A stretch of DNA of 63,042 nt, filler included, from Hausera hauseri (Eukaryota), in assembly GCA_046269625.1 (NCBI GenBank). It is 11 parts of 11 records of this genome, joined end to end, with 100 filler letters (N's around TTAATTAATTAA, not from the genome) between each part and the next. Parts side by side here need not be neighbours in the genome. Positions count along the whole stretch, not along the records: positions 21,381 to 26,439 come from JBJURY010348601.1; 10 more parts are not named here. One strand, written 5' to 3'. Each line of letters begins with the position of its first letter. The first letter of the stretch is position 1. The notes beneath the pieces are model-generated. The model was not told where the DNA came from, did no database searches, and saw nothing but the letters and a program-made list of their open reading frames with translations. A program made the translations under genes and the position numbers. Of this stretch, positions 22,472-26,439 are shown one piece after another.

Positions 22472-23001
22472 TGGTGGTACACGAGCCCGCGGCACCACAC
22501 TGAGGGTTATCAATATGTTTCAAATAATTATATGTTAATGTAGTGCTTTGTTTTGGAAATAAAAATTGTTTACTTGACTACAATCTCTCTGCAGATTGTG
22601 TCTAACTGTTTTACTTTGAAGAAGAAATAAATACTATTCAAATAAATATATATTCAGCAATTACAACAAAAAATGAAGACCCAAATAAATAACAACCAAC
22701 AATAAATTTCTTAATACTTACTTACAATAAAAGCCAATATCAATTAGTAAGAATTTCAATTACAGAAATTCATCCACGAATATCATCAATAAATTCAATG
22801 ATATTTATCAATTACTCTGTAGGAAAATATCTGTGTCCGAATATGAATTTCATCTCACTATTTATACCATCAAGTCACTACTTAAAATTTGCGCCGGCGG
22901 TAATTAAAATTTATGAAAAAATTGTATTGGCCGCGCGCACAAACTTTAAATTTTAAGGCCAGACAAGTACATCTTGTCTGGAAAATATCATATTTCCAAC
23001 A
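22472..23001 (-). mobile_element. Probable 3' LTR (~530 bp) of an LTR retroelement
   Basis: The minus strand begins TGTTGG right after a purine-rich tract and ends CCACCA (imperfect inverted termini). It has an internal TATAAATAG near 22860 and GTAAGT donor-like motifs near 22720. The far end is less certain than the PPT-proximal end. Confidence 0.6.
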
Positions 23002-23015
23002 TTCCCCGACCCTTA
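23002..23015 (-). promoter_or_regulatory. Polypurine tract preceding the LTR
   Basis: Minus strand AAGGGTCGGGGAA is immediately followed by TGTTGG. Confidence 0.6.
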
Positions 23016-23198
23016 AGGGGTTGTCAAGAACAATATACAAAAACAAATAAAAATAAACAAATAATATTTACATAAATAAAAGATAATGATAAAAGAAATG
23101 AAAGGTACAATAAGTACAAGATCATAACCAAAAAATGAAGTAGGAATATGTACAAATGAATGATCAGAGACGAGATAGAAGGTTATCATTTACAAATG

Positions 23199-24632
23199 TT
23201 AATAGTCCAAATCCACGACACTCCTTATATCATTCTCAATTCTAAAAGTTAATGTCTGTTCCAGATCCGGTTTCTTGGTTTTAGGTAATCTTTCTATAGG
23301 AATAAGTACTGGTTTCTGTTGCTTCAGTAGTAGGACATAAATTAATTTTCCACCTTTGTATTCGCTTTTTAAGTTTGATATCACTTGATTACCTTTTAAT
23401 TGTATCGGAAGCTTGGTTTTAAAGTCTGCATCCAACCGTATGGGCAATTTATATAGATTTCCGTAATCATTGAAGAGGAAGAAAGTTTTGATATCTACCG
23501 ATCTTTCATATATAAATCCGATCACCACATTATTGTATGTATCCCAAGATTGTAGCGTGATTTGTGGAATCGTTTGATCGATGTAGAGTGGAATCTCAAT
23601 GGAATCGATTACAACTGGGAAACTAAAATTTCTTGTATATATAATGACACCGAAAGGGAACGTAAATATATCTGAAGTTTCCAATCCTTGTATAATTCTC
23701 CTAATGAACCTGTTGAAATCAGTTTCTTCAGTTTGAACCGCTACTGAATTCATCTGGCTGTTGTTATGATTCCAATTACCCCAATTCTTTTCAGATGTAT
23801 TTTCATTTGCAACTTCGAGAATTTTGTCTTCCATTTGCAGTTTCCGTTCTTCATCTGCAACAGTATCCGATATGTTCGATACTGATGGAGTTTTTAACTC
23901 ATCCATTATTTCATCCACAATAGCTTCAGTGTCTTGAAGTGATCCTCCTGTCACATGATGAATCCAGGCAAAATCCGACAGATATTTTTCTCGATTGTAG
24001 AACAATTCTCCTGGATCTATTATATTATTAAATGGATCCGGTGGGGACCATGATACTTTAAACATATCAACTATTAATCTAAAGATATCCATGGTAAGCT
24101 GTAATTTTCCGTGATTATCTTGCGCATAATGTTGCCCATTTTGAATTCCGGGTAATTTAAGAATCGTACCAATATTCGTCAGAGTTACTTGGTGAAAGAT
24201 TCGTCCAGTTATCTCTTCATGCTTTAATAGGTCTATAGCTCCAGCCAAATAATTAAAAGGAATATCAAAAATTTCCAACATTTTATGCGTTTCTAAACCT
24301 ATTACAACTGTTCCCAATAGCCAATTAATCAATTCCTTAGTAACATCGTATATGTCTTGACCATAATTGGAAATGTAATCAGGAAGAATGCCATGTCTTA
24401 TAGAATTAAGATTATGGAGTTTTTTCCTATTAGCAATTATGGCTTCATATAATATAGCACCTCTTTTATTGGCAATAGTGACATGTATTGGTAGAGGGCT
24501 ATTGTCTTCCATATAACCTATAGATACTGTTAATATTCGGATAGTGTTACTTTGATTTGTGGTAATGAAATTCAGACCATTTTGCTTTATCAATTCTGGA
24601 GGATTATGAGCCAAAATCATAGGCCTTGGCAA
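23199..24632 (-). CDS. Protein with degenerate REX4/ISG20-like DEDDh exonuclease domain plus unknown C-terminal domain
   Basis: aa ~31-185 (VTIANKRGAILYE..I....HGILPDYI....DV..EL..WLLGTVVIG....IQNGQH....TMDIF) follows the REX4 fold pattern (VSIVN..G..LYD..SGI.P...LL...ILVGH...IQ.GEH...TM.LY). The acidic catalytic residues are missing. The true start probably lies upstream. Confidence 0.6.
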   Translation of the reverse strand: MPRPMILAHNPPELIKQNGLNFITTNQSNTIRILTVSIGYMEDNSPLPIHVTIANKRGAILYEAIIANRKKLHNLNSIRHGILPDYISNYGQDIYDVTKELINWLLGTVVIGLETHKMLEIFDIPFNYLAGAIDLLKHEEITGRIFHQVTLTNIGTILKLPGIQNGQHYAQDNHGKLQLTMDIFRLIVDMFKVSWSPPDPFNNIIDPGELFYNREKYLSDFAWIHHVTGGSLQDTEAIVDEIMDELKTPSVSNISDTVADEERKLQMEDKILEVANENTSEKNWGNWNHNNSQMNSVAVQTEETDFNRFIRRIIQGLETSDIFTFPFGVIIYTRNFSFPVVIDSIEIPLYIDQTIPQITLQSWDTYNNVVIGFIYERSVDIKTFFLFNDYGNLYKLPIRLDADFKTKLPIQLKGNQVISNLKSEYKGGKLIYVLLLKQQKPVLIPIERLPKTKKPDLEQTLTFRIENDIRSVVDLDY

Positions 24633-24659
24633 ATATAGATGCTTCTCTGGAAGTAACCA

Positions 24660-24975
24660 TTAAATCATTAAGATCATCGGGACGTATATGGGTCTGGCTT
24701 GTAACAAATCAATACTCATTGGTGTATTGATGAATAGAGTTTCTTCTTCATATATTATATTTGTTCTTTGATCATTATACTGGACTTCATTCCTGGTTTT
24801 TAGGCAAATCATGCCTCTAGCTACGTGGATAACTAGTCCATCTATTTTATCAGTTTTGGACATATATCTTTTCAATTCCAATGGCTGAGCTTCGTTAAAT
24901 AAATCCCAAGATTCCGGTTTACGGTAATTCCGTGCTTTAATTGGTTTGGAATCCGAACCACATTTAATGCTACGA
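24660..24975 (-). pseudogene. Upstream continuation of the nuclease-like ORF (same frame, separated by one TAA)
   Basis: The 24660..24881 ORF is in frame with 23199..24632 (...VPMILMI*WLLPEKHLYLPRPM...). The frame stays open to ~24975, overlapping the 501-aa ORF. Confidence 0.45.
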
Positions 24976-26439
24976 AATTATCTGTCTTTATCATTTGTCT
25001 TCTGATACCATTGTAGAATGTTTTGGACATAGTCTTATTGTTGGTACCTTTTTTGTAGCCATAGTTTTGGATTAAGGTTGATGCATCCAATTGATCAGCG
25101 TGATACTGAGGACAAATTTTTGAAAACAATAGATTTGATTCGATTTGCGAGTCCGTTTTGTTCATTCTCTGATTAACTCGTTTCATCTTGGTTTTGCAAT
25201 TGAATTTGTAGAGAGCTGAAAATAAATTAAATTCATTTATATACTCACCTTTGTTGCTTTGTATACAACATACAACCAATGAACATGCTAAAAGTGTGAC
25301 TATTTGTGGAGGCGCGTGTGGTGTGTGCAATGATTGCTCGTGCAGATGACTAATTTTCAATCGCCATCTTGAAATTAGTGGGCAGTGACACGTGTTAGTG
25401 TCAGTATGTCTGTGTCTGACTATTTTTGGAATAATTAAAGTGCCTATAGCCAACGTAAGTAACAAAGCTATACTTAATACAATAATCAACAGAGAACATA
25501 TTGTAATACTTAGTTCTACACTATCAATTTTTGGCTTTATAATCACAGACTCATTTCTAACATCCTTTTTGTCATAACTAAATTTGACTACATCATTTAT
25601 CTTTTGCAATGTTTTAACGTGGTTTTCTGAGTAGTGAGTACAGTTCTTTACTACTACTAAATATTCACTATCTGAACTTAATCCTATGCAGTAAGCGTAT
25701 TTTTGTTTCTTTTCAAAAATAACTCTCTGCTGATGATGTTGGTTTATACAGGTTATACTAACCCATGTATTCCGGGTATTCGTTTGATAATTCCAACCGA
25801 ATGCTATTCTATCTTGTTTAGGGTAAATTAGTACAAACAAATTTTCAGTGATTTCTATTTCGTTATGTCTAGCTATCTTTTTATACTCCTTATAGGGTAT
25901 GTTACATCTATTTTGCTTGGTCATGAAAGTAGTGTCATATACACAATCATTAATTTTAAACGGTATGAGACATTTAATGCTTGATTTAACTGTCAAATGT
26001 AGATTCCATTTATTTTCTTTATTGCTCTTAAAGATTAGTGCCAGTAGTGAGAAAGACTGATCTCTAATTACTAAAAGACAGGTTAAACTATTGTCATTAT
26101 CTAAATCAGCAAAAGCAAGTTTATCTTTGTAAAAAATCACTATTCGTACTATATGGCTAGTAAATCTCTTTTTAAATCTTATGCAACCCTTTTCAAAATT
26201 TGGTCCTAACACTTGTATTTCTTTGTTGAATATCTCGTCACTAGGAGTATGATTTTGATTTTGCTTAACTAGCTGTACTAATGATTCATAAGGGATATTA
26301 AATTGACCATAGCTCATATGGGTACATGTCAACAAAATAGTAAATACACAAATCATAGTTAACAAATTGGTAGACAATAAATTTGGTGATGTAAAACCGA
26401 ATTTTCCAGTGTACGATTTTGGAGCCTTTGTTACGTTTT
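24872..26439 (-). CDS. Membrane protein with fibronectin type III domain and transmembrane helix; frame open to contig edge
   Basis: Hydrophobic segment at aa 5-20, FN3 signature at aa ~178-257 (ENLFV...IAFGWN...IGLSSDSEYLVVV...KTL), and TM helix at aa ~289-316 followed by basic RHRH. There is no stop between 26377 and the gap at 26440. Confidence 0.7.

Follow-up and report, generated by a model that had tools for sequence, protein, structure and literature searches.

The closest described counterparts of the locus reported here are Juno and Vesta, two kinds of long terminal repeat (LTR) retrotransposon from bdelloid rotifers (Rodriguez et al. 2017), whose third open reading frames (ORF3s) are not env genes and include a 3'-5' exonuclease in the env slot; other bdelloid members carry small transmembrane (TM) ORF3s (PMC5408684). 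The authors of that work considered a part for these genes in RNA 3' processing or in silencing and pointed to the dead DEDD proteins Maelstrom and EXD1; the function of non-env genes that occupy this slot has yet to be settled (PMC5408684). We analyzed a window of 63,042 nt (positions 1-63042) from Hausera hauseri (GCA_046269625.1), made up of 11 unrelated contigs of 4.0 to 15.6 kb that are joined by N44-TTAATTAATTAA-N44 spacers and are not genomic neighbors. Our subject is one of them, the contig at 21381-26439 (JBJURY010348601.1, about 33% GC), whose edge at 26439 adjoins such a spacer and which has no match to the other contigs of the window. In our view this contig is probably what decay has left of the 3' end of an LTR retroelement with a cassette of two minus-strand genes in its env slot: a membrane protein (ORF A) and a broken, catalytically dead nuclease (ORF B).

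The likeness to Juno and Vesta lies in the exonuclease in the env slot, and their catalytic DEDD has become DEED, as it has in the intact relatives of ORF B described below (PMC5408684). Their nucleases, however, are of the DEDDy (RNase D-like) type, catalytically intact, and without a TM segment or a membrane-protein gene (PMC5408684; excerpts of PMC5718144), whereas the family described here is of the DEDDh (REX4/ISG20-like) type, has an extra N-terminal domain, stands in tandem with a type-I membrane-protein gene, and is dead in one branch. The family does not type as DEDDy: its ExoIII motif carries the His (HxAxxD) and its best matches are ISG20L2 and ISG20, the bdelloid proteins having been compared by description only. 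From REX4, ISG20, and ISG20L2 themselves it differs in being repeat-borne, in having Glu for the ExoII Asp in intact relatives, and in its extra domains. Full-text literature searches listed no LTR element with a REX4/ISG20-type nuclease or with a membrane-anchored FN3 gene, a scope that leaves out subscription journals, supplements, Repbase, and Dfam, where the family may be recorded. An earlier reading of the contig, made from sequence only, had not recognized the combination as described; this holds for the nuclease type and the pairing but not for env-slot nucleases as such, which have a precedent (PMC5408684).

Three further systems can be compared. Errantiviruses (Ty3/gypsy) have env proteins of the F or gB type (Chary and Hayashi 2026, PMC13524379). 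They share with our locus a signal/ectodomain/TM gene within an LTR element in an invertebrate-type genome, but ORF A is without F or gB homology; the words fibronectin, exonuclease, and nuclease are absent from the main text of PMC13524379. Burro, a giant planarian Gypsy element of more than 30 kb, carries MATH, BIR, BCL2, ankyrin, and dUTPase cargo and has its env in frame between Gag and protease (PMC6431247). Both are LTR elements with host-like accessory domains, yet Pfam found none of Burro's cargo families in the window ORFs or the scanned relatives, and in one relative (L004) the membrane protein follows the protease. The DEDDh exonuclease of the arenavirus nucleoprotein is reported to suppress innate RNA sensing (PMC3429428, PMC7968707), with only a minor role in interferon antagonism according to another study (PMC9815661). 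It, too, is a captured DEDDh exonuclease of a selfish RNA element, and it is an Atlas neighbor at 0.88, a match that we treat as a lead only. We use it as a model of how such a protein could work, not as a claim of membership: no homology beyond the shared fold was seen, and activity in the present family is a prediction. Kuafuorterviruses (PMC11673190) and the Luticola genome paper (PMC13238120), judged on the available parts of these texts, were not relevant as comparisons.

The contig sequence is that of a divergent multi-copy family. Two contig sets, X1 and X2, were aligned to the stretch; X1 may lie near the source of the window and is not independent support. Aligning to the contig were 1162 X1 contigs (783 of them less than 95% alike) and 200 X2 contigs, and no single contig of either set spans the whole stretch. 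Contig depth is very uneven and gives neither a copy number nor a ranking of parts; the analysis therefore draws only on how many contigs align and where they diverge from the stretch. A single site within ORF A is covered by as many as 34 different X1 contigs; 7 to 8 contigs per site cover the 5' part of ORF B, and 1 covers its 3' end.

ORF B is a broken gene for a DEDDh-fold nuclease. Its 3' part, a 486-aa ORF (24659-23199), encodes the REX4/ISG20-like domain (about 24545-24065) followed by an unassigned tail of about 290 aa. Atlas gave this ORF the DEDDh (RNase_T) fold (0.95, 190/256 features), and a three-sequence profile including ORF B matched ISG20L2 (E 2.5e-8) and ISG20 (E 3.3e-8), in a list that includes SDN1 and reaches 1.6e-7. 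The best solved-structure matches of the domain are REX4, ISG20, and ISG20L2 (PDB 7yw5, 1wlj), and homology to this fold also appears in the relative P0007, which scores 33.4 bits against Pfam RNase_T (cut-off 24). The sequence-only reading had identified the fold but took for the gene what is only the 3' part of a longer, broken one. The 5' part (24663-25186) encodes an N-terminal domain of about 140 aa that is split by a frameshift near 24900-24910, and an in-frame stop at 24660-24662 separates the two parts. Because this domain was found split over two frames, we place the start of ORF B near 25186 and its full length at about 660 codons, with two breaks. With X at the breaks, the window's N-terminal domain scored 8.9 bits against a profile of 9 intact relatives (1/1000 shuffles as high) and 14.6 bits when P0002, a further relative, was in the profile (0/1000 shuffles); the middle fragment of ORF B alone reached an hhalign probability of 10.8% against the family. 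The domain has no identity in Pfam or the PDB. A cupin, suggested by a motif seen by eye, is without support in Pfam or the PDB, and the best PDB match, 1uly at E=0.008, was rejected, as it comes from two weak stretches. The breaks look copy-specific: at the stop, each of the 7 listed X1 contigs, which account for the whole depth of the site, differs from the window, and one X1 contig has indels at the frameshift site.

Word-indexed protein searches with ORF B gave no match, and scans of viral contigs, genome contigs, phages, and a first metagenome set found no relatives. A full HMMER scan with ORF B gave 2 borderline matches, a profile search added 6, and a metagenome scan gave 14 loci. We kept 13 of these as the family (L001-L013); L014, a bacterial DnaQ-like gene, was dropped and served as outgroup only. 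Family proteins are about 540 to 670 aa long, and a conserved N-terminal domain of about 140 aa precedes the nuclease.

The surroundings of these genes point to an LTR element. All 5 loci that reach 480 to 900 nt past the nuclease stop show a hairpin, a CC(C/G)GAGA-type tract, and then TGT(A/T)(A/G)GG; the other 8 stop earlier or show no such junction. The similarity of L007 to L008 is 87% as far as the TG, past which they can no longer be aligned, and L007 and L009 share 49 nt at 94% at the junction. Two distinct elements have a membrane-protein gene upstream of the nuclease. In one (L003/L004), a retroviral aspartic protease (RVP, 23.8 bits, cut-off 20.7) continues in frame into a signal, then a Cys-rich domain, a stalk rich in Thr, and finally a TM helix (L004:3-1679), directly upstream of the nuclease; in the other (L013), a signal/ectodomain/TM gene and two coiled-coil ORFs precede it. 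On the strength of the relatives' purine-tract/TGT junction, upstream membrane genes, and protease fusion, we conclude that the genes are very likely the accessory cassette of an LTR-retroelement lineage. The earlier proposal, in which the contig is the 3' end of an LTR retroelement and cargo genes take the place of env, is supported by relatives that share gene order and junction, one of them with a retroviral protease. Membership in Ty3/Gypsy is unproven, since paired LTRs and reverse transcriptase (RT) were not seen.

The 3' end of the window copy has the same layout. The ORF B stop lies 185 nt of AT-rich sequence upstream of a polypurine tract, AAGGGTCGGGGAA (23002-23014, minus strand), the distance that had been called from sequence only; the tract abuts TGTTGG at 23001, and 5 relatives have a similar C-[CG]-G-R-G-A-W..|TGT junction. 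The likely 3' LTR is 453 bp long (23001-22549, minus strand), runs from TGTTGGAAATA to TATTTCCAAAACA, and contains TATAAA at 22866, so that TG..CA termini and a preceding polypurine tract are both present. Its end was chosen by the best terminal-repeat score, TATTTCCAAAACA being an imperfect inverted repeat of TGTTGGAAATA (5/200 shuffles as good); no primer-binding site follows this end. A TG..CA LTR with a TATA box had been proposed before, and that part stands, but the end then given, 22472, falls 28 nt inside a second element and is most likely 22549 instead. This second element, 49 nt past the first LTR, is a 416-bp solo LTR of another family (22499-22084, minus strand; TG..CA, AATAAA at 22154), flanked by a 5-bp CTCAG target duplication (22504-22500 and 22083-22079, with 0.026 expected by chance; 22079-22504 overall). 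One X1 contig spans the junction of the solo LTR with its flank. Three X1 contigs depart from the window at 22501 into a tract that is G-rich on this strand, as expected because other copies of the solo LTR would follow their own purine tract.

Whether such elements encode their own polymerase bears on the alternative that retains most weight, itself a variant of the reading we prefer. The family could be a non-autonomous, pol-less satellite consisting of (gag)-protease-membrane protein, nuclease, and LTR that is mobilized in trans, which we regard as quite possible while thinking the odds are against it. In L003/L004 the order runs from protease through signal, ectodomain, and TM segment to the nuclease without any RT, RNase H, or integrase intervening, the membrane frames of the window and L013 also reach the contig edge, and TelKA2n, a pol-deleted family that keeps env, has been described (PMC5408684). 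Against this, L003/L004 is one element only and possibly a single deletion derivative; RT and integrase could sit further upstream, as both GAG-ENV-POL and ENV-GAG-POL orders exist (PMC13524379); and the 27 open codons before the first Met of the window frame are not rare by chance.

The window copy of the nuclease lacks its catalytic acids. Read by eye from an alignment with the relatives, the four acidic positions are S, G, M, and N while the His is retained; none of the D, E, D, D set survives, in agreement with the earlier call of a dead REX4/ISG20-like nuclease. The intact relatives read D, E, E, D plus H, with Glu replacing the second Asp (ExoII): D-x-E is present in 12 of 12 checked loci, GxDLHxE in 11, and H..D in 10, the misses being one broken and one truncated locus (L003 was excluded as a 99.8% duplicate of L004). 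The ratio of nonsynonymous to synonymous substitution rates (dN/dS), which the sequence-only reading had wanted across copies, was computed between relative loci and is 0.025 to 0.078 in 4 of 6 pairs, with the other 2 saturated and dS near saturation. Judged by these ratios, the nucleases of the intact relatives are under purifying selection.

The acid losses could reflect neutral decay of a nuclease that was active until the copy inserted, so that no pseudo-nuclease was ever selected. We think this unlikely. The window copy does carry a frameshift and a stop, and most relatives are intact; on the other side, four acids are replaced against only two breaks in about 660 codons, and an unbroken 870-aa relative, P0002, which has both family domains, is without the same catalytic residues and has the G and M in common with the window. 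Nor is the copy heavily eroded, given its few breaks and an X1 contig that departs from the 3' end of ORF B at only 4 of 598 nt. The X1 differences listed (40 of 746) do not extend to the catalytic codons. Catalytic loss would thus probably have preceded decay, with P0002 as the one other sequence that speaks for this order. Of the earlier "RNA-binding pseudo-nuclease", the loss of the acids is upheld, but the window copy is itself a pseudogene with two breaks, and in the majority of relatives the catalytic site is intact. P0002 also has a C-terminal C3HC4 RING finger (aa 747-790), and its gene lies on a 16.2-kb contig.

ORF A encodes a type-I membrane protein (25433-26437, minus strand) in a frame that is open from the contig edge. 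The frame has no stop from 26437 to 24875 (521 aa), so that in the window copy none separates the membrane protein from the start of the nuclease. A signal-like segment (aa 20-38, 26380-26324; hydropathy 2.0) is followed by a Cys-containing, beta-rich ectodomain and a TM helix (about aa 309-335, about 25513-25433; hydropathy 3.0), and the 521-aa frame has 6 N-glycosylation sequons. Word-indexed protein searches with ORF A gave no match. Of 17 listed X1 differences in ORF A, a best-supported subset, 9 fall at third codon positions, which is not significant (p=0.08). A putative FN3 domain (25604-25861, minus strand) is a lead from Atlas and from a motif seen by eye: Atlas placed ORF A at 0.90 to FN3 and cytokine-receptor clusters (181/256 features; 8 of the 10 best matches in one clan). 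Pfam and PDB sequence searches with the 86-aa candidate were negative. Two single-sequence AlphaFold models (pLDDT 39, for ORF A, and 36) were unusable, and Foldseek with the low-confidence ORF A fold returned nothing at E<=0.001. The open frame with its hydrophobic segment and TM helix is therefore as the sequence-only reading had it, but the FN3 domain that it named is probable at most, on the strength of an Atlas lead.

We lean toward an adhesin rather than a fusogen for ORF A. The protein has no Pfam family at E<=1, including none of the F- or gB-type env families, and a scan found no furin site (R-x-K/R-R) and only two hydrophobic segments, with no third; by F/gB homology, furin site, and fusion peptide it does not group with errantivirus env. 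The non-fusogen surface protein suggested earlier is, on these results, plausible. That ORF A is instead a genuine, unrecognized fusogen giving the element an infectious stage seems improbable to us. Its env position and topology (signal, glycosylated ectodomain, TM) would suit one, and non-canonical fusogens occur in LTR elements (sORF2; bioRxiv 10.1101/2025.03.14.642691), but it is without an F/gB match, furin site, or third hydrophobic segment, its Atlas neighbors are FN3 receptors, and in relatives the slot holds unrelated ectodomains.

Two further explanations deny the retroelement itself and fare worse. The genes could simply belong to the host, singly or as a multigene family, and an LTR could have landed close by: membrane-anchored FN3 proteins and REX4-like nucleases are common in hosts and no pol was seen, but the genes are intronless with many divergent copies, relatives repeat the gene order and the purine-tract junction (one with a fused retroviral protease), and protein searches found no named host homologue, which leaves this reading very improbable. 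Helitrons have a CTRR end. We give even less credence to the end of some other gene-capturing element (Helitron, Terminon-like, or DNA transposon) with TGT as target sequence, for although a hairpin precedes the junction in relatives and Terminons carry DEDDy and TM ORFs (excerpts of PMC6431247), no CTRR end lies at the junction, all junctions continue as TGT(A/T)(A/G)GG, the window segment has a terminal inverted repeat, and L004 has a retropepsin.

Several points weigh against the retroelement cassette that we prefer. Neither the window contig nor L001-L013 showed an RT, RNase H, integrase, gag, or 5' LTR, the longest pieces compared being 5.1 kb (the window contig) and 5.7 kb (L013); the sequence-only reading had likewise reported no gag or pol on the contig. 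The LTR end at 22549 has a p of about 0.025 from a single shuffle test and was chosen after looking. The window nuclease is only about 25% identical to its intact relatives, so that their context is borrowed for the window, and the 13 loci come from two assemblies and possibly from one sample. The window and P0002 group at 89/84, below the support threshold of the tool, and both are long branches. Finally, no significant similarity links the three ectodomains, those of the window, L013, and L004 (for the putative FN3 domain of ORF A against L013, 301/1000 shuffles scored as well), and it is because of this that we describe the env slot as conserved and its content as not.

With these reservations, the cassette that we favor suggests the following mechanism. 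The element would move by reverse transcription, relying on a pol that is either located past the contig edge or provided in trans. Synthesis of the membrane protein would probably occur at the end of a polyprotein encoded upstream, or else start from its own signal; the product would then sit on the surface of the cell or particle and act as an adhesin or mimic a receptor. For the nuclease, the template would probably be a subgenomic RNA, either spliced or started internally. Such RNAs are suggested by an enrichment of YAG within 10 nt before downstream ORF starts in the relatives (13/15, vs 42/180 internal Met codons), in counts to which related loci contribute non-independently. The window has a candidate expression signal at 25216-25248 (minus strand), predicted from the sequence and comprising a donor-like GTGAGT, TATATAAA (25243-25236), and an acceptor-like TTTTCAG that ends 29 nt upstream of the ORF B ATG, outside the 10-nt range. 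In the intact relatives the nuclease might degrade or trim element-derived RNA and so blunt host RNA sensing or small-RNA silencing; this defense-suppression role, drawn by analogy, is tentative and in our estimate falls somewhat short of an even chance. In the branch of the window, the fold was probably retained to bind RNA without cutting it until this copy decayed. We are doubtful of the fullest version of this picture, in which an undescribed animal LTR lineage, partly pol-less, would combine an exchangeable surface protein that is not a fusogen (of the FN3 type in this copy and released from a protease polyprotein) with a captured two-domain REX4/ISG20 nuclease that suppresses host RNA defense and became a selected, non-cutting decoy in one branch.

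The window copy is a broken relic that matters chiefly because it leads to the family. There, one captured nuclease occurs naturally in both active and dead forms, with strong purifying selection in the intact branch, together with a variable surface protein, and the family adds a conserved 140-aa N-terminal domain and a protease-membrane protein fusion without RT. It makes both defense suppression and env-independent spreading or adhesion directly testable.

Minor ORFs accompany the cassette in the relatives. Between the membrane gene and the nuclease, small paralogous coiled-coil ORFs starting MSPIMPD occur at L013:1773-2204, L013:2669-3058, and L012:588-1166. A short ORF lies between nuclease and purine tract at L003:2884-3255, L004:3590-3961, and L005:2264-2557; the C-terminal ends of the three look alike by eye, and the L004 one is without a Pfam match. 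On the window contig, a decayed ORF-like flank with several stops (21599-22075, minus strand) matches neither Pfam nor the element proteins, and 21447-21941 is 99% conserved in X2.

Elsewhere in the window, two other contigs carry remnants of an LTR-retrotransposon pol (RT, RNase H, integrase core), broken, at 54977-57153 (minus strand) and 32404-33054 (plus strand); the RT/RNase H and integrase fragments are Gypsy-type and cannot be linked to the contig at 21381-26439. Long simple or tandem repeats at 3730-13850, 17245-21182, 35058-39757, and 45383-49725 give spurious open frames. A frame at 34131-34799 (minus strand) weakly matches ankyrin and the receptor L-domain, and at 59260-59910 (minus strand) a multi-TM fragment weakly matches 7tm_1. 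A fragment of a protein-primed-type DNA polymerase B with an endonuclease VII domain, which we take to be Polinton-like, lies at 60770-61852 (minus strand).

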